DNA of 64,000 bases from a virus (IMGVR_UViG_3300038318_000232:1-64000), one strand, 5' to 3'. Positions 14,546 through 62,749 are shown, counted from the stretch's first letter. Notes: generated by a model from the letters alone, not told the origin. Made by a program: numbers and translations.

Positions 14546-14745
14546 TGCTATTGATTTTCTATCATGACTTCACTGACAAAGAAATAAATATTCACCTTCT
14601 GGCAGGGATGAACTCCCTGCTTTTTGTTGAGGCCGAAGGGACAGAGCGGGAGCAGGCGGTGCATCTGATTCTTAGCGATAGGCAGATGCGGGAGTTAAAG
14701 AAGGCAATGGAGGTGGGAGCCAAACAATATGAACAATTGGAATAA
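14542..14745 (+). CDS. hypothetical protein (67 aa)
   Basis: Start within GGGAGGAGTGATGCTATTG box overlapping the dnaB stop. Confidence 0.5.
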   Translation: MMLLIFYHDFTDKEINIHLLAGMNSLLFVEAEGTEREQAVHLILSDRQMRELKKAMEVGAKQYEQLE

Positions 14746-15286
14746 AATCATACTGGATTTATGTGGTGGCACTGGTTCCTGGTCCAAACCCTATTATGAT
14801 AACGGATATGACGTTCGAGTTATCACCTTGCCGGACAATGATGTAAGGCTGTGCCCCCCCCCCCCGCAGGGAATTTATGGAATATTGGCAGCTCCCCCGT
14901 GTACCGATTTCGCTTCTAGCGGTGCTAGGTGGTGGGAGGCTAAAGGCAAATCTGCTTTGCTTGAAGCCCTGTCCATTGTAGATGCCTGTTACAGAATAAT
15001 ATCTATCGCTAATCCTGTATTTTGGTGCTTAGAAAATCCTATTGGTAGACTGGTTCATTATCTCGGTGAGCCAGTTTTGTATTTTGACCCCTGTGACTAC
15101 GGCGATCCGTATACCAAAAAAACTTGTCTGTGGGGCAACTTTAATATCCCCGCAAAGAACCCGGTAGAGCCAACGGAAGGCAGTAAGATGTGGCGATGCT
15201 ATGGAGGTAAAAGCGAACGAACCAAGCGATTGAGAAGCGCAACCCCCCCCGGTTTTGCCCAAGCCTTCTATGAAGCCAATAGATGA
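14729..15286 (+). CDS. short DNA cytosine-C5 methyltransferase-like protein (no obvious target-recognition domain)
   Basis: Motif I LDLCGGTGSW, motif IV AAPPCTDFAS, motif VI CLENP; contains a C12 tract (14854-14865) and a C8 tract (15243-15250). Confidence 0.7.
   Translation: MNNWNKIILDLCGGTGSWSKPYYDNGYDVRVITLPDNDVRLCPPPPQGIYGILAAPPCTDFASSGARWWEAKGKSALLEALSIVDACYRIISIANPVFWCLENPIGRLVHYLGEPVLYFDPCDYGDPYTKKTCLWGNFNIPAKNPVEPTEGSKMWRCYGGKSERTKRLRSATPPGFAQAFYEANR
14854..14865 (+). repeat. poly-C homopolymer (12 nt) inside the methyltransferase-like gene, currently in frame
   Basis: Counted directly: gtg + 12 C + gcagg; encodes CPPPPQ. Confidence 0.95.
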
Positions 15287-15299
15287 GAGGAAGTGAGTT

Positions 15300-15551
15300 A
15301 TGCCGAGAATAACACCAGGAGAATACCAAATGATCCAGACTGAGCTTATAACCATGGCTGCTACAGTTCAGGGCTTCGACCTTGAAGGATTCCTTGAAAA
15401 CATATCATACGCCGATACAATGGGGCCTATCCTTGATCCTACGCTTTGGACGAAGGGCTCAGATCGGATGCACAAGATTGAGCAAATAGCCCGAGCAGCG
15501 TTGAGGTTTCAAAAGGAATGTGCCAAAGCATTGGGGGTGGAAGAAATATGA
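15300..15551 (+). CDS. hypothetical protein (83 aa)
   Basis: SD GAGGAAGTGAG before ATG. Confidence 0.55.
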   Translation: MPRITPGEYQMIQTELITMAATVQGFDLEGFLENISYADTMGPILDPTLWTKGSDRMHKIEQIARAALRFQKECAKALGVEEI

Positions 15552-16024
15552 TTATATCCATCGACCCAGGCCCCGTACAGAGCGCATTTGCCGTCCTTGA
15601 CGAACACTTAAGGCCTATCGAGTTTGGAATCCTGCCAAATGATGAACTGCTTAACCGCCTACATTGGGGCGAATTCGCTGGCATAAATGACTACTTCGCA
15701 ATTGAAATGATTGCCTCCCAAGGAATGGCGGTTGGTAAAACCGTTTTTGAAACCTGCGTTTGGATAGGCCGATTCTGGCAGGAAGCCGATTGTCCTTACA
15801 AACAATTTGTCTACCGTAAGGACGAAAAGATGAACCTTTGCGGGAGTATGAGGGCAAAAGACGGTAATATTCGGCAGGCTTTAATAGACAGGTTTGGTAT
15901 CGTCGGCACAAAGAAGTCCCCCGGGTGGTTCTACGGAGTATCAAAGGACGTATGGGCGGCTATAGCGGTAGGTGTTACATACTATGACACGGTAATTATG
16001 AACAAAAAGAAGGTGACTCCATGA
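15548..16024 (+). CDS. RuvC-like Holliday junction resolvase
   Basis: ATGA coupling; IISIDPGP, FAIEMIASQG and DVWAAIAVG acidic-residue motifs of the RuvC/RNase H fold. Confidence 0.7.
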   Translation: MIISIDPGPVQSAFAVLDEHLRPIEFGILPNDELLNRLHWGEFAGINDYFAIEMIASQGMAVGKTVFETCVWIGRFWQEADCPYKQFVYRKDEKMNLCGSMRAKDGNIRQALIDRFGIVGTKKSPGWFYGVSKDVWAAIAVGVTYYDTVIMNKKKVTP

Positions 16025-16182
16025 TCCCTACCAACAAGAAACGCCAATACCAAAAAGATTACTGGCTTAAGAAAGCATGGCTTTATCAAATCCCAACCGA
16101 AGGCCGCGAGGATGATGCGGCGAGAGAAGCAGAGCGCAGGTACAGGAAGGAATATCGGGCGAGGAAGAAGGTGGGGGGTTGA
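16021..16182 (+). CDS. small basic protein (53 aa)
   Basis: ATGA overlap with resolvase stop; below the ORF-track cut-off. Confidence 0.4.
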   Translation: MIPTNKKRQYQKDYWLKKAWLYQIPTEGREDDAAREAERRYRKEYRARKKVGG

Positions 16183-17091
16183 ATATTGGACTTATTGACG
16201 TTGACTCCAAAATCCCAAACTTAGCCCTGATGAAAATATCTGCATGGCATAAGGCGCAAGGTGATTCGGTTGAATGGTATGGAGGTTTGTTTGACAACCC
16301 GGACAGGATTTATGCCAGCAAGGTATTTACCTTTACTCCCGATTATCAATATTTCCCATCCGGGGGGGGGCATTCCCATATTTAAGGGTGGAATCGGCTA
16401 CGATATGCGCCCCAATAGTGAATACAGAACTTCTTTTTGCCCTATCGCTTTTGACTACATGTGCCCTGACTACTCATTGTATCCTGACATGGACTATTCT
16501 ATGGGGTTTTTAACTCGTGGATGCCCCAACAAATGTTCATGGTGTTTTGTTTGGAGAAAAGAAGGCAATATTCACCCGGCAGCAGACATTGATGACTTTT
16601 GTCGCCACAGGGAAGCAGTTTTAATGGACAACAATGTCTTAGCTTCAGATTGGGGCGTAAAACAAATTCAGAAGATTATTAAACTCGATATCCGCATTGA
16701 CTTTAATCAAGGGCTTGATGCGAGGCTCATTGACGATTCGATGGCCAAGCTACTCTCGAGGGTTAAATGGCGTGCGCCCGTTAGACTGGCTTGCGACACT
16801 TCGGCGCAGATGAAGCACGTTCAAAAAGCTGTGGAAGCCCTTCGGTGGTACAACACAAAGCCGATGGCCTATTCCTGTTACGTTTTGGTGAGGCCCGGCG
16901 AGGTTGAGGATGCTATTCGGCGGGTGAGATTCTTAAAGGGGCTTGGAGTTGATCCCTTTGTTCAACCATATCAACCGCCCGAGGGTAGATTGCCAACCAA
17001 AGAAGAAAGCGACTTGGCGCGGTATGTTGACATGAAAGCTACGTTTAAAAGTTGTTGGTGGGAGGAATATGGGAAGAAGGTGCGTCCATGA
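16179..17091 (+). pseudogene. phage radical-SAM protein split by a frameshift in a G9 tract
   Basis: N-terminal part 16179..16385 (MNIGLIDVDSKIPNLALMKISAWHKAQGD) and the CxxxCxxC part (GCPNKCSWC) in frame +1 from 16369; the frames join at G-run 16362-16370, and G8 would give one ORF. Confidence 0.8.
16362..16370 (+). repeat. poly-G homopolymer (9 nt) at the radical-SAM frame junction
   Basis: Counted directly: catcc + 9 G + cattcc. Confidence 0.95.
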
Positions 17092-17369
17092 CGAAAGTAA
17101 TCGCCTTCCAACGAGAAGGCAGGCTCATAATCGGACAGGTTTACTCGACCTTCATGGAACGCCAAAGAGATGGCAGGTACATGGAGGTTTTCTTTTGCCA
17201 GGATTCGGACGGAATCAGGCGCAGGGTGGAAAAGCGGGATGTGATGATAGTCACCGCTAAGACCGCAGCGAAACCACTTAAGAAATCAAAAAGGAGGCGT
17301 GAGCGTGACGCAAGACGGGAGCGGAAAGCCGCTAAAAGTGTATGTATGCGGGCCGCTGAGTGCCGATAA
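17088..17369 (+). CDS. hypothetical protein with Arg/Lys-rich tail (93 aa)
   Basis: ATGA overlap with the radical-SAM stop. Confidence 0.45.
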   Translation: MTKVIAFQREGRLIIGQVYSTFMERQRDGRYMEVFFCQDSDGIRRRVEKRDVMIVTAKTAAKPLKKSKRRRERDARRERKAAKSVCMRAAECR

Positions 17370-18091: not shown

Positions 18092-18483
18092 CCGAGTAAT
18101 TTTGATAGGGCGGCTCACCCGCGACCCCGAGCTCCGTTATACTCCAAATGGCACTGCGACATGTTCTTTTACCCTCGCCATAAACCGCAAATTCAACAAA
18201 GAAGAGACTGACTTCATTGATATTGTAGTTTGGAGAGGCCTGGCTGAAAATTGTGCTTCATATCTCCACAAAGGGTCTATGTGTTGCGTAGAAGGCAGAC
18301 TTCAGGTTCGCACTTACGAAGACAAAGAAGCGGAAAGTCACTGAAGTAGTAGCGGACGATTGCCGGTTCTTGGACAGTAAAGCCAAGGGCGACTCCAAGC
18401 CAGCCTCCCCTCCCCCGCAGGATCAATGGAGCAACCTTGGGCAGGAAATTGACTTGGGGGACTCGGAAGAAATTCCATTTTAA
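18084..18483 (+). pseudogene. ssb: single-stranded DNA-binding protein, apparent ATT start and internal +1 frame break
   Basis: (I)[22 protein letters not shown]...[11 protein letters not shown] in frame 0 stops at 18342-18344; [17 protein letters not shown]...DSEEIPF (canonical acidic tip) continues in frame +1 to TAA 18481-18483. Confidence 0.85.
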
Positions 18484-18496
18484 GGAGGGCGATTTT

Positions 18497-18796
18497 ATGT
18501 TGCGCGCGATAACATTAAAAACCCTCCCCGACTACGACTTAAGATGCTGTTGGGCTAGTCTTGGGCTCTGTGTTTACGGCGGACAGAAGTGGACTCCTGA
18601 GAAAGCAATCAATTATGTTTTTAACGAGTACACCCTACCCCAGGAAAGAATGAGTCTTGCCGAAATCCACGATATTCACAGGTTGCACGAGGGAGGTATG
18701 AGTTTCCCGCAAATTGGCGAACTTTTGGGAGTGTCGTTCAAAACCGTGTTCAACGCTCACAAGAGAATCTATGGAATGGGGGGGAAAGGCAATTAG
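18497..18796 (+). CDS. HTH DNA-binding protein (99 aa)
   Basis: AAGGAGGG 8 nt upstream of ATG 18497; EGGMSFPQIGELLGVSFKTVFNAHKRI HTH. Confidence 0.55.
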   Translation: MLRAITLKTLPDYDLRCCWASLGLCVYGGQKWTPEKAINYVFNEYTLPQERMSLAEIHDIHRLHEGGMSFPQIGELLGVSFKTVFNAHKRIYGMGGKGN

Positions 18797-19085
18797 AAGA
18801 TACCTTATTTACGTTGCCCGCTGGGGCGTCCTAGCTATTCCAGGGGCGGCGTTTTTAGTTTGGGTAAGCAAATATATTACAAACACATACCTAGCAATGG
18901 TGGTCTCACAAATGGCTTTAGGGGCCATTATTTATTTTGTGGACAAACGAATCTTCAGAGACAGGAAAGTGGAGCAGGTGATATTTTACGCTCGGCATGT
19001 AGTTCTGTTGTATAAATACAACAAGCAAATGGAATCTGGAATAAGCCATTTGCAGCAAGCCTTGGACGAATTGAAGGAGGGATAG
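18771..19085 (+). CDS. membrane protein, two predicted TM helices (104 aa)
   Basis: ATG 18771 overlaps the end of the previous gene; WGVLAIPGAAFLVWV and LAMVVSQMALGAIIYFV. Confidence 0.5.
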   Translation: MEWGGKAIRRYLIYVARWGVLAIPGAAFLVWVSKYITNTYLAMVVSQMALGAIIYFVDKRIFRDRKVEQVIFYARHVVLLYKYNKQMESGISHLQQALDELKEG

Positions 19086-54589: not shown

Positions 54590-54814
54590 TTATCCCTCCT
54601 TTAAACCTGCCCTTTCATCGGCTAGATATTGGGCTTCCTTGTCACGAATGCCCATAAGCCAGAACCGGTTTTTGGTACGGCGAACCCAAACGCCTTTTGA
54701 TAAATAGTAGAGATAAGCCGTTTTTGTGATTTGTTTCAGGTTTAGTCCCTCCTTATTTCCACCGAACGAAATAGCGAAATCCTTGTTTTCAAATGAGGGG
54801 GATTTTGTAAACAT
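54590..54814 (-). CDS. hypothetical small protein (start uncertain)
   Basis: Its 3' end supplies the SD of the next ORF; the first in-frame ATG abuts tRNA-Trp. Confidence 0.3.
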   Translation of the reverse strand: MFTKSPSFENKDFAISFGGNKEGLNLKQITKTAYLYYLSKGVWVRRTKNRFWLMGIRDKEAQYLADERAGLKEG

Positions 54815-54888
54815 GGCACCGGCCAAAAGAATTGAACTTCTACCCTCAGTTTTGGAGACTGAAATGCTACCAATTACACCAGACCGGC
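54814..54888 (-). tRNA. tRNA-Trp (anticodon CCA)
   Basis: Cloverleaf by hand: anticodon arm TCAGT-CTCCAAA-ACTGA, T loop TTCAATT, encoded CCA. Confidence 0.85.
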
Positions 54889-54891
54889 ACA

Positions 54892-54965
54892 TGGTTAGGA
54901 GGGAAAGAATCGAACTTTCGCATTGCGGGTCAAAGCCGCATGTTCTACCACTGAACTACCTCCCA
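54892..54965 (-). tRNA. tRNA-Gln (anticodon TTG)
   Basis: Acceptor TGGGAGG/CCTCCTA (U1-A72), anticodon arm TGCGG-CTTTGAC-CCGCA, T arm GAAAG-TTCGATT-CTTTC, encoded CCA. Confidence 0.9.
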
Positions 54966-54966
54966 A

Positions 54967-55042
54967 TGGAGCCGAGTGGAGGAATCGAACCTCCTTATGC
55001 TCCCTTACAAGGGGAGTGACCACGCCAATGGACCAACCCGGC
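54967..55042 (-). tRNA. tRNA-Thr (anticodon TGT)
   Basis: Acceptor GCCGGGT/ACTCGGC, anticodon arm CTCCC-CTTGTAA-GGGAG, T arm GGAGG-TTCGATT-CCTCC, encoded CCA. Confidence 0.9.
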
Positions 55043-55980: not shown

Positions 55981-57252
55981 CTACTCACCGAGAATCGCCC
56001 CCCAGCCGAACTGCATAAAGCAGGATAGGAACTTATCAGGGTTTTCTCCAAAATAAACAACTGCCTGCCCCTGCAAAGGCGCTCCAATAGAGCCACCGGG
56101 AGTATAGAATTTAACCCGGCCTTTCGGAAACACAATTGCACTTGCTTGGCCAATAAGGGTATTAAACCAAGCGGTTTCTGTGGCATTATTCACCAAAACA
56201 ATCGCTTCCTGAATATCACCAGTCGCAAAATAATTAACCAGTTTATCACAGAACAAAGGAATTAACTCCCCCGCATATGGGGGATTCATCCAAACGCGGC
56301 CAGTCCAATCTTGTTCTAATCCGTTGTCCTCTATAGTAAATATCTGCTTCGCGCCTACTACCCTATTAGCAACTTCACTGCTGGCCGGATCTAAATCTAT
56401 ATCACCCATTACCTCCTTGGCCGCTTCTATATACGGCGAAGGTGTATACCATTCGTTGTTACCGGAATTATAGGCAACATGCGGGGTTTTCTTCTCTATG
56501 GCTTCCTTAACCGTTTTTGATTCACCGGTTGCCACTTCCTGAATAACTTGCCGCTGTACTTCGGGTTCGGCCTTCGCTAGTTCCAAAGTATCCTTCTTAG
56601 TCACCGGAATCTCATGGTTAAGAATTTGCTGTTTTACTTGGGGTGTAGTGTTTTGAGTTATAGTGTCCACGGCCCTAGTGAATTCAGCATCATTTTTGAT
56701 GGTTCGAGGAGAAACATTGTGCTGCTCAGCCAATCTTTCAGCCGTTTTAGGTTGGGTGCAATTTTTGCCTTCAACCTCGCTAAATTGGTTTATCCCTTGC
56801 TCATTAGGAATTTTCTTTTTTTCTCTCTCGTATTGCAAACCCCGAAGATAACTTTGATTCGCCGGAGTTAAATTACGTCGGCCCAATTGGTTATTTATTA
56901 TCCAGTCAATTACCTCGTCGCGGCTATCAAAATCCATCTCTATTGTTTTAAATTCAATGCCATGATCTTGGCAAATGTCATATCGGTTATGTCCATCAAT
57001 CAAAATGTGTATTTCTTCCATGGGATAAATTCCATAACCGCACTTAGGGCACTCCCAATTGCCGCCTGGTCCGAACTCAACTGCAACATCTTCGCAACAA
57101 TCACGACAATACCCAGTATCATACATTATGGGTTGCGCCCAAACTACTAGCGCATCTCGGCACCCTTCCGCAACAATGTTTTTCTCTAACTGCTCATACT
57201 CATCCACTGCCAACCGGGGAATGAGATTCCTGAACTCCTGATCAATAATCAT
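55981..57252 (-). CDS. ParB-like nuclease domain fused to phage-type DNA N6-adenine methyltransferase
   Basis: ParB box ILIDGHNRY with an inserted zinc ribbon; C-terminal VWMNPPYAGE (NPPY) methyltransferase domain. Confidence 0.85.
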   Translation of the reverse strand: MIIDQEFRNLIPRLAVDEYEQLEKNIVAEGCRDALVVWAQPIMYDTGYCRDCCEDVAVEFGPGGNWECPKCGYGIYPMEEIHILIDGHNRYDICQDHGIEFKTIEMDFDSRDEVIDWIINNQLGRRNLTPANQSYLRGLQYEREKKKIPNEQGINQFSEVEGKNCTQPKTAERLAEQHNVSPRTIKNDAEFTRAVDTITQNTTPQVKQQILNHEIPVTKKDTLELAKAEPEVQRQVIQEVATGESKTVKEAIEKKTPHVAYNSGNNEWYTPSPYIEAAKEVMGDIDLDPASSEVANRVVGAKQIFTIEDNGLEQDWTGRVWMNPPYAGELIPLFCDKLVNYFATGDIQEAIVLVNNATETAWFNTLIGQASAIVFPKGRVKFYTPGGSIGAPLQGQAVVYFGENPDKFLSCFMQFGWGAILGE

Positions 57253-57397
57253 CAATACCATCCTTTCGTATTGGTCAATCCACGATAAATGCCCGGAACA
57301 GAAGGCAGGATTTACCTCTTTTCGGCTTGCAATCACCTATTTCCGGGCATGAAAAAAGCCGCTCCCGAAAGAACGGCCTTTATCACCTTATTTATTT

Positions 57398-58003: not shown

Positions 58004-58125
58004 TTATTTCTAGTAATCCATGTTTTTTGCCATCAAAGTACCAATACCAAAGGATTCTTCTCTCAAAACATGTAATTCTGCATATTAGACTTAATTAGTA
58101 GAACTACATGATTTTGATTTCAGCA

Positions 58126-58155
58126 AAACAAAAAGCCCCGGTTTTTCTCCGGAGC
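58126..58155 (-). terminator. intrinsic terminator upstream of the first late-arm gene
   Basis: Minus strand GCTCCGG-AGAAAAA-CCGGGGC followed by TTTTTGTTTT. Confidence 0.6.
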
Positions 58156-58386
58156 TAATTTTGCTTATATTTTCCTCGCGCCTGAGCGCCTTGCCTGTCG
58201 TCCCCCCTATAATATAGCACATGAACTTATATGGGAATCTACTATAATTCTCTAAAAATACCTCAAAAGTCTACTATTTTTCACCACCCTATATTTTTGC
58301 CCACCTTTTCCGCTAAGTTTTTATTGAAAGCCCATGTGTGAGAGTAATTTTTGTGAGGGGAGTCTCTCCCGCCCGCGCTGTCTGAT

Positions 58387-58395
58387 CCCCCCCCC
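58387..58395. repeat. poly-C homopolymer (9 nt) in the ORF-free control region
   Basis: Counted directly. Confidence 0.9.
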
Positions 58396-58817
58396 TACCC
58401 CTGGCCGAAAACAAAAGGCACTTGGCGCCGACTGCGAACGGCCCACCAGGCAGTCAAAGAAGGAGCAAAAGCGCAAAACCTATGCCAATATGAGCATCAA
58501 AACTGGAAATTAAACAGCGAATATACAAAAGGCCTGCGTAAACAAGCTTGCAAAGCAAATATAATACCTAAAATACATATTAAAGGTACTATATATGAGC
58601 CTGCTATAATCAACCAGACAAAAGCCCGATATATTGGGCTATACTATATAATAAGGGCTGACGTATGGCATCACCTTGACCCATGTCAGTCGCCGGCCTC
58701 TCTCTCGCTTATTAAGGAGCTCCGTTCGACCGGCTCATATGGCTCTATGCCCGGTGTATTGGGTGTGCACAACCTTGTGCTCATCCCTAAGTAACTGAGC
58801 CTGCCGTCTGCTCTTCC

Positions 58818-58832
58818 ATAACCTTTAGTTAT
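58818..58832. promoter_or_regulatory. palindromic operator-like site ATAAC-N5-GTTAT (copy 1)
   Basis: ATAACctttaGTTAT. Confidence 0.5.
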
Positions 58833-58853
58833 ACTTCCCAATTCCTTATCAAC

Positions 58854-58870
58854 TATAACCATTGGTTATA
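58854..58870. promoter_or_regulatory. palindromic operator-like site TATAAC-N5-GTTATA (copy 2)
   Basis: TATAACcattgGTTATA. Confidence 0.55.
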
Positions 58871-58955
58871 ACACAACAGTCTTATTAATCTATTACATTT
58901 TGTAATAATATGCACTGCATGATTACAGTATAATGTATTGTTATATAACGCTTAC

Positions 58956-62038: not shown

Positions 62039-62749
62039 ATGATGGTACAACTCACTCAGGAACAGATAAATGTCCTGGAGGCGGCGGGCGCAATGCCTCA
62101 GCAGGAGATTCCCTCAGTCCCTCAGTACGGTAAAAAATTCTCCCTGGTTAAGGGCAGCGGGAAAAAGCGCAAACCCAAGAGACTTCCCAAGGTAGTCAGT
62201 GAGGAAAAATTTGCTCAGTTAGTCTCCAAGCTCAATACCAAGTGCTTTATCGGGCTCCGCAATCGCGTTATCTTGGAAACCCTGTACAAATCCGGCCTCA
62301 GAGTGCAAGAGTTATGCGATCTCCAAGTCTCAGATGTAAATATTGAAACCGGCCAGATTTATGTCCAGGAAGGCAAGAACTCAAAGGATAGAATGATTGC
62401 TATTGGCCCTTCGCTCATGGAATGGCTCAGTCAATGGGCAAGCGTGCGGCCTCAGCAGAGCGAGAGCTTCTTCTGTACCTTCAAGGGCGGGGCTTTAAAT
62501 AAGCGGTATGTACGGGCTATGATAGAGCGGCAGAGCATCAACACTCAGGTATTTATCCAGGTTGGCAAGAAAAAGAAGGTTGTTTGGCCTCATGCTCTAC
62601 GCCATTCGTTTGCCACGCATTTGCTGGACAAAGGCATGAACATTATCGAGGTTAAGGAGCTCATGGGGCATGAGAGTATTGCTACAACCCAGGTGTACAC
62701 CCATGTTTCGATGAAGGTTCTGGATGCCAAGATTAAAGCCCTTGGTTAA
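62039..62749 (+). CDS. short tyrosine recombinase (XerC/D-like catalytic domain, no large N-terminal arm-binding domain)
   Basis: RNRVILETLYKSGLRVQELCDL, HALRHSFATHLL, GHESIATTQVYTHV (R..HxxR..H..Y). Confidence 0.85.
   Translation: MMVQLTQEQINVLEAAGAMPQQEIPSVPQYGKKFSLVKGSGKKRKPKRLPKVVSEEKFAQLVSKLNTKCFIGLRNRVILETLYKSGLRVQELCDLQVSDVNIETGQIYVQEGKNSKDRMIAIGPSLMEWLSQWASVRPQQSESFFCTFKGGALNKRYVRAMIERQSINTQVFIQVGKKKKVVWPHALRHSFATHLLDKGMNIIEVKELMGHESIATTQVYTHVSMKVLDAKIKALG

Follow-up and report, generated by a model that had tools for sequence, protein, structure and literature searches.

Described contingency loci and the radical-SAM gene of the present phage

Hypermutable homopolymers inside coding sequences, known as contingency loci, have been described in several phages, and two cases stand closest to the one treated here: the receptor-binding genes of Fletchervirus phages of Campylobacter, which carry polyG tracts (Sorensen et al. 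2021, Cell Rep 35:109214, as cited in PMC10877375), and the T2 agt A9 and T4 rIIA tracts, with reversion measured for rIIA (Gomez, Barrick & Waters, bioRxiv 10.1101/2025.10.21.683753). The locus in question is a run of nine G residues (G9) in a radical S-adenosylmethionine (radical-SAM) gene carried by a stretch of viral DNA of 64,000 nt (IMGVR_UViG_3300038318_000232:1-64000), hereafter the window, which represents most of the ~68.3-kb genome of a siphovirus-like phage. The run places the two parts of the gene in different reading frames, for which an earlier note on this DNA had offered three readings: a sequencing or assembly error, a phase variant in the OFF state, or a site of programmed frameshifting. 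The comparative data (Table 1) favour the second, and a probability of about 0.7 is assigned to the tract being a real, length-variable switch caught OFF.

As summarized in PMC10877375, the Fletchervirus tracts are likewise polyG runs in phage coding sequences, in which a change of length switches the frame and gives rise to subpopulations; the same source describes them in receptor-binding genes of lytic myoviruses that infect Gram-negative hosts, with switching demonstrated experimentally. The window phage, by contrast, carries its run in an accessory radical-SAM gene, is of a temperate, siphovirus-like type, probably infects Desulfotomaculaceae, and offers evidence that is wholly comparative. 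The T2 agt tract is likewise a homopolymer of 9 nt, in a phage gene that is not essential; it undergoes frequent, reversible frameshifts, and the agt enzyme modifies DNA, its ON and OFF states trading off between host restriction systems (bioRxiv 10.1101/2025.10.21.683753). The T2 and T4 tracts are, however, A runs with a known function and trade-off (bioRxiv 10.1101/2025.10.21.683753), whereas conservation of the tract across lineages, which the T2/T4 study did not demonstrate, constitutes the main evidence for the window phage.

Among bacteria, the polyG and polyC loci of Campylobacter, Haemophilus and Neisseria resemble the present locus in comprising G/C runs of 8-12 nt in the 5' third of an open reading frame (ORF), in occurring several to a genome, including in DNA methyltransferase genes, and in showing mixed ON and OFF states among isolates (e.g. 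PMC4889913). Unlike these, the window element belongs to a phage, and the tract in its methyltransferase gene has been seen in frame only (C9 and C12). A further parallel exists in the polyA slippage of endosymbionts and in Thermus dnaX, where an intact, selected gene carries a homopolymer frameshift in several lineages; there, however, the out-of-frame configuration has become fixed, in runs of A/T, while in the window group the run is of G and its state varies between near-identical genomes.

Phage contingency loci are therefore already described, and no new mechanism is involved here. What is new is the host group, the temperate type of the phage, the radical-SAM gene itself and an unusually clear conservation of the tract across lineages; to our knowledge, radical-SAM enzymes had no earlier link to phase variation in phages. 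With this locus, contingency loci in phages would reach beyond those of Campylobacter phages and the T-even coliphages, to temperate phages whose hosts are strictly anaerobic Bacillota. A homopolymer frameshift in a metagenomic phage genome is routinely dismissed, or corrected without comment; here the comparative data show such a frameshift to be a real allele, at a tract preserved by selection in deeply diverged phages.

One gene in two frames and the length of its G-run in relatives

The G-run at 16362-16370 is exactly nine nucleotides long between TCC and CAT, and the frame-0 and +1-frame ORFs meet within it, in agreement with the earlier note, which has the coordinates, the frames and the arithmetic right (features in Table 2). 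In the frame-0 ORF, residues 1-61 are genuine and form the N-terminal Rossmann-like domain of a radical-SAM protein, after which follow GGG from the tract, four out-of-frame codons (HSHI) and a TAA stop. Its TTG start codon, which is preceded by AGGTGGGGGG, overlaps the stop codon of an upstream 53-aa ORF as TTGA. The remainder of the protein lies in the +1 frame, in which the ORF delimited mechanically starts at GTG 16261, runs to 17091 and includes the motif GCPNKCSWC. Removal of one G in silico (G8) restores a single ORF of exactly 303 aa, with the cluster cysteines at C115, C119 and C122. The tract is accordingly a G-run of at least ~7 nt inside a coding sequence, at which a change of one nucleotide in either direction shifts the frame.

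The two ORFs belong to a single radical-SAM gene, as the earlier note had proposed. The repaired protein aligns end to end with phrog_9298 ('radical SAM domain protein'), residues 1-296 against positions 1-290 of 305 (E 6.3e-84), and this full-length match is obtained only with the tract repaired to G8. A search of 5.8 billion protein clusters returned at least 8,000 significant matches, and the best 120 matches listed mostly have 98-100% coverage and a length of ~290-300 aa. Rather than being consistently divided into two genes, homologues spanning residues 1-297 occur as single ORFs at confirmed loci in IMG/VR (575), GTDB genomes (504) and metagenomes (575). The three cysteines of the CxxxCxxC motif, the binding motif for the [4Fe-4S] cluster, are invariant in alignments of 20 and of 80 sequences, and N14, L17, M18, K19, G28 and F50 are invariant across the 80 homologues.

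An AlphaFold2 model of the repaired protein (predicted local distance difference test 91.6, predicted template modelling (TM) score 0.88) comprises a small alpha/beta N-terminal domain, a loop containing G62-G64 and a radical-SAM-type barrel. Together with Foldseek comparisons, the model indicates the partial (beta/alpha)6 triose-phosphate isomerase (TIM) barrel characteristic of the radical-SAM superfamily. Since the three glycines are placed by the model in a surface loop between the Rossmann-like domain and the barrel, the glycine tract would be tolerated in the protein. Foldseek hits in the PDB include NifB, SkfB, lysine 2,3-aminomutase, SuiB, HemN and PqqE, with probabilities of ~1.0 and TM-scores of only 0.35-0.46; among viral models the best hits are COG1032/B12-binding-like and MtaB-like proteins (E 1e-7 to 1e-4, TM 0.4-0.6), to which the predicted resemblance is at the level of fold only. 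The match to Pfam PF04055 covers residues 111-130 only and, at 16.6 bits, falls below the gathering score of 29.5; NCBIfam and PADLOC gave no match to the repaired protein, and a profile search of the PDB gave nothing significant, SuiB appearing at E 0.022. Class B (B12-binding-like) and MiaB-type enzymes share with the protein an alpha/beta N-terminal domain, a T-R-G-C-x3-C-x2-C motif and a partial TIM barrel, but the window protein is much shorter (~300 aa) and has no significant sequence match to a curated family.

Contigs that hold the tract site show G7, G8, G9 or G10 at the same position (Table 1). A direct ON/OFF pair comes from lineage C, in which L005 (G10, OFF) and L091 (G9, ON) have no substitution over 4,120 nt and differ only by one-G indels in two G-runs, namely the radical-SAM tract and an intergenic G7/G8. 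The locus thus displays length polymorphism between identical or near-identical genomes, with both ON and OFF alleles. The intergenic run lies at 368-374 in L005 (G7) and at 20-27 in L091 (G8); a C9 run just 3' of the HNH gene is unchanged between the two contigs. In lineage A, the two G7 contigs are 99.9% identical to each other.

Table 1. Length and frame state of the radical-SAM G-run in contigs carrying the tract
Lineage	Contig	Tract	In-frame length	State
A1, window (L001)	ERZ724039 NODE_301, 68,326 bp, 11x, SPAdes	G9	8	OFF
A1	Logan SRR32304683, 99.9% identical	G9	8	OFF
A1	68,390-bp Logan and 68,370-bp JGI contigs	G9, implied from identical out-of-frame proteins (P0001/P0121)	8	OFF
A2, 97% identical	ERZ724040 (SPAdes) and ERZ922856 (k127 assembler, other project); L003, L094	G7	8	OFF
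B, 77% aa	L004, NCBI GCA_041890195.1	GTC-G9-CGT	8	OFF
C, 68% aa	L005, SRR24085921	ATC-G10-ATT	9	OFF
C	L091, sister run SRR24085923	G9	9	ON, 302 aa
D, 70% aa	L006, SRR30850181	TCC-G8-CAT	8	ON, 328 aa

Across the four lineages, which have ~70% nucleotide identity, the tract occupies the same codons (G9/G7, G9, G10/G9 and G8). Two of the six distinct alleles are in frame, close to the one-third that would be expected were the frame state free of constant selection. Outside the four lineages the tract is interrupted or absent: in the P0010 lineage the glycines are encoded GGG GGA GGT, so that the tract is interrupted and stably in frame, and in relatives further off the tract is absent and the glycines are altogether missing. 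The 240 loci obtained by protein-based searches of IMG/VR, GTDB genomes and metagenomes all have at most 75% aa identity and lack the tract, and serve only as an outgroup and for the analysis of neighbourhoods. An exact tract-plus-flank pattern found no match in IMG/VR or the JGI metagenome collection, and the tract-bearing clade was reached only in ENA, Logan and NCBI contigs by way of protein look-ups. Megablast of 14700-17200 against INPHARED phages likewise gave no match, so that no cultured relative is available there.

A short-read consensus is least reliable at homopolymers of nine or more, read depth is modest (11x for the window contig, 2.5-2.9x for those with G7), and L005 and L091 differ by homopolymer indels alone, just as errors would produce. 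These features would suit the possibility that the true run is G8 and that the additional G is an Illumina or assembler error. The same G9 is nevertheless recovered across runs and pipelines (ENA SPAdes, Logan and JGI), while two projects that are unrelated and used different assemblers both yield G7, one of these contigs (ERZ922856) having been retrieved through the methyltransferase gene, irrespective of the radical-SAM gene and with no pre-selection of tract length. Furthermore, a lineage-A G8 allele is absent among ~15 billion predicted proteins, and out-of-frame lengths are reported in further lineages (G9 in L004, G10 in L005). With G9 and G7 each recurring in independent assemblies, an assembly error is very improbable.

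Long homopolymers are slippage sites for RNA polymerases and ribosomes, as in the A9 of Thermus dnaX, insertion sequence elements and the polyA runs of endosymbionts, and in three of the four OFF alleles the tract exceeds the in-frame length by exactly one G (window G9/8, L004 G9/8 and L005 G10/9). It has thus to be considered that G9 (+1) is the working state, in which full-length enzyme arises from programmed recoding, either through RNA-polymerase slippage that yields transcripts one G shorter or through a +1 ribosomal slip at GGG_G involving tRNA-Gly, with the 68-aa product as the default. The arrangement, however, is not fixed, since in-frame (L006 G8, L091 G9), +1 (G9, G10) and -1 (G7 in L003/L094) alleles coexist, and relatives further off have a single ORF without the tract, so that no conserved shift site is found. 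The 0-frame stop follows the tract after four sense codons in the window and after one in L004 and L005, unlike the prfB type. A frameshift-stimulating RNA structure was not found in the 141 nt at 16340-16480, whose folding energy of -33.7 kcal/mol does not stand out from shuffled sequences (z = 0.17). In addition, the documented bacterial transcriptional slippage that we know of concerns A/T runs. Some leaky expression from OFF alleles is plausible, but the programmed frameshifting entertained by the earlier note finds no support in these data, and recoding as the main mechanism is quite unlikely.

The favoured account instead treats the G-run as a contingency locus, a hypermutable homopolymer lodged in an accessory phage gene, for which slipped-strand mispairing at a maintained homopolymer would be the simplest explanation. 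Mispairing during DNA replication would add or drop single G residues and so toggle the gene between in-frame and out-of-frame states, G8 being ON and G7 and G9 OFF in the window lineage. In the G9 allele, translation from TTG 16179 would end after 68 codons at the TAA, and the Fe-S/SAM core would not be made, save for any low-level slippage. Switching may be fast and reversible within a population and may act as adaptive bet-hedging. On the sequences compared, the single gene unit, the difference in length between near-identical genomes, the presence of both frame states and the conservation of gene and uninterrupted tract across long divergence are shown.

Maintenance of gene and tract set against decay

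Between lineages, synonymous divergence (dS) is saturated (>1 or not computable), while non-synonymous divergence (dN) is ~0.2. Most computable comparisons give dN/dS values of 0.05-0.15, with N- and C-terminal parts alike, although N-terminal comparisons with L006 give 0.13-0.35; the value between L004 and L005, both of which are currently OFF, is 0.11. In each OFF allele, both halves are free of further stops and indels. The low dN/dS and the intact halves together indicate a gene that has long remained functional. As for the tract, GGG accounts for 19% of glycine codons in this phage, and GGGGGG encodes only one of 72 Gly-Gly pairs in the other long ORFs of the window. Because GGG is scarce and synonymous sites are saturated, uninterrupted runs of G7-G10 in four lineages would not be neutral, and sequence comparison accordingly indicates that gene and tract are both kept beyond neutral expectation.

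The serious rival is a dying copy of the gene in lineage A, in which the G-run would be a mere mutational hotspot, the loss irreversible and the gene a young, decaying pseudogene rather than a maintained switch. Several observations weigh on this side and against a switch. Lineage A is OFF (G9 or G7) in every assembly seen, and neither its 90% protein cluster nor the search matches include a 303-aa allele. Within the gene, the G9 strain is separated from the G7 strain by three non-synonymous and no synonymous changes, which hints at relaxed constraint, even if three differences are too few for dN/dS within lineage A to be informative. The gene for the single-stranded DNA-binding protein (SSB) of the same genome is itself frameshifted by an 8-nt deletion that does not lie at a homopolymer, and its split state fits some gene decay in the window strain. 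The radical-SAM gene is accessory, its position in the genome differing among relatives, some of which have a helicase gene in its place. More generally, the lengths compared are consensus alleles from different samples, and several contigs were found by exact protein match, which presets the tract length and partly biases the counts of reproducibility. Composition alone also contributes little: overlapping G8/C8 matches number 10 in the window against 3.8 +/- 2.3 expected from dinucleotide-preserving shuffles, of which 1 in 100 reaches 10, so that the significance of long G/C runs is only modest (p ~0.01). More informative is the distribution of run lengths: those of A/T runs in the window fall off smoothly to a maximum of 7, whereas G/C runs are almost absent at 6-7 and then present at 8, 9, 9 and 12; the weight of the evidence is nonetheless comparative, not compositional.

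Against irreversible loss stand the halves of the OFF alleles, which carry no extra stops or indels, and a dN/dS of ~0.1 between lineages that carry OFF alleles. The unbroken tract is kept in four lineages despite saturated synonymous divergence, the ON/OFF pair of lineage C shows no other difference in the radical-SAM region of 4.1 kb except the indel in the second G-run, and the occurrence of G7 and G9 in strains that are 97% identical implies repeated recent changes of length. Loss is consequently considered improbable, though somewhat less so than recoding. The three changes between the G9 and G7 strains are clustered at 16530-16570 (codons ~132-139; NIHPAADIDDF versus NIYPAADIEAF), and the flanking genes are only 97% identical.

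The product of a maintained switch may act on nucleic acid, a speculative role that is proposed because the family adjoins genes for DNA methyltransferases and 3'-phosphoadenosine-5'-phosphosulfate (PAPS) reductase. Genes within three positions were surveyed at 202 loci of the phrog_9298 family (within L011-L259), among which the commonest neighbours were C5 DNA methylase PF00145 (29 loci), PAPS reductase PF01507 (23), YopX PF09643 (20), N6/N4 methylase PF01555 (16), Dam PF05869 (10) and ASCH (9, by weak matches under the Pfam cut-off). Such a neighbourhood would fit a role in the modification of nucleic acids; a literature search on radical-SAM proteins with PAPS reductase and methyltransferase in phages found nothing relevant. 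By analogy with T2 agt, the ON and OFF states could, speculatively, trade off between host defences, and the activity of phrog_9298 appears to be conditionally costly. The family is widespread, occurring in prophages of Oscillospiraceae, Bacteroides, Desulfovibrio and others, and the tract provides a handle on the role of this very common phage and prophage radical-SAM family.

Phage genome, neighbouring genes and further G/C tracts

The near-equal sizes of three assemblies (68,326, 68,370 and 68,390 bp) suggest a complete genome. It encodes a large terminase, a portal, a major head protein, a tail protein, an endolysin-like amidase, a tyrosine integrase and three tRNAs (Trp, Gln and Thr), and a 1,641-aa ORF in the tail module is probably the tape measure gene. 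The early or replication arm comprises, in order, genes for a DnaB helicase, a C5 methyltransferase and a RuvC-like resolvase, the 53-aa ORF and the radical-SAM gene, downstream of which lie a DUF7768 deoxyribosyltransferase-like gene, YopX and SSB. The Pelotomaculum sp. metagenome-assembled genome GCA_003489345.1 contains relatives (HBC95045.1 and HBC93345.1/HBC93346.1) of both the methyltransferase and the helix-turn-helix (HTH) protein, which offers a hint, at the level of binning, of a Desulfotomaculaceae host. A second methyltransferase of the phage is fused to a ParB-like domain.

Table 2. Coordinates of features in the window
Feature	Position	Strand	Remarks
C5 DNA cytosine methyltransferase, small	14729-15286	+	phrog_757, E 1e-48; 0.9 kb upstream of radical-SAM gene
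C12 tract in methyltransferase gene	14854-14865	+	PPPP; C9 (PPP) in relatives examined
C8 tract near methyltransferase C-terminus	15243-15250	+	constant length in all relatives seen
Radical-SAM gene, frame-0 ORF	16179-16385	+	TTG start, 68 aa, MNIGLIDVDSKIPNLALMKISAWHKAQGD...YFPSGGGHSHI, TAA at 16383-16385
G9 homopolymer, proposed switch	16362-16370	+	codons 62-64 of 303; G8 or G11 in frame, G9 = +1
Radical-SAM gene, +1-frame continuation	16361-17091	+	loop, KGGxGY motif, CxxxCxxC, remaining radical-SAM core
SSB, frame-0 part	18102-18344		80 aa
SSB, +1-frame part	18325-18483		rest of the oligonucleotide-binding (OB) fold and canonical acidic tip ending DSEEIPF, stop
HTH_38 ORF	18497-18796		overlaps membrane-protein ORF
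Membrane-protein ORF	18771-19085		
G7 tract	18778-18784	+	in overlap of HTH_38 and membrane-protein ORFs
tRNAs (three)	54814-55042		
Methyltransferase fused to ParB-like domain	55981-57336		
ORF-poor region, ~0.8 kb	58100-58930		beside 201-aa minus-strand ORF
C9 run, non-coding	58387-58395		in the ORF-poor region
Tyrosine integrase	62039-62749		

The radical-SAM gene behaves as a mobile cassette. In L006 it follows a 3D-domain gene rather than the 53-aa ORF, and in L093, L095 and L097 its position downstream of the methyltransferase is taken by a helicase-family gene (ResIII/Helicase_C, by faint matches). The SSB gene is a single 129-aa ORF in L094, L260 and L261, and the remaining ~68-kb contigs encode the same 80-aa product of the split gene. 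Slippage by +1 at AAA_G would yield a plausible SSB protein, but a plain inactivating deletion is simpler.

The small methyltransferase bears out the remark in the earlier note that a neighbouring modification-type gene carries a C12 tract; in relatives this tract is C9, both lengths being in frame. A relative of 184 aa (HBC95045.1) is titled 'DNA cytosine methyltransferase [Pelotomaculum sp.]'. Methyltransferase contigs were found by exact protein match and are thus biased to in-frame lengths, out-of-frame alleles being missed by this route. The constant C9 of eight assemblies was considered as a control for homopolymer accuracy and dropped, given that an exact match of 184 aa forces C9. At the overlap of the HTH and membrane-protein ORFs, the tract is G12 in L260, where there is one fused ORF of 200 aa, and G11 in L263, where the ORFs are split; in L261 and L262 it reads G9-T-G, and the two genes are coupled by a GTGA stop/start overlap. 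The variable methyltransferase, HTH/membrane and intergenic tracts show that length-variable G/C tracts recur in this phage group.

It is a tentative and rather doubtful suggestion that these tracts form a multi-locus 'phasome' in temperate phages of anaerobic Bacillota with Pelotomaculum-like hosts. Taken as a whole, this proposal would have conserved G/C tracts independently toggle the radical-SAM enzyme, fuse or split the HTH/membrane regulator and resize a loop of the C5 methyltransferase, and would have the enzyme perform nucleic-acid modification, its ON and OFF states hedging between defences that attack modified and unmodified DNA.

Long G-runs seem to be common in this phage group. 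In L181, a 71%-identical relative with no tract in its radical-SAM gene, a G9 run occurs at 1410-1418, ~200 nt downstream of that gene.

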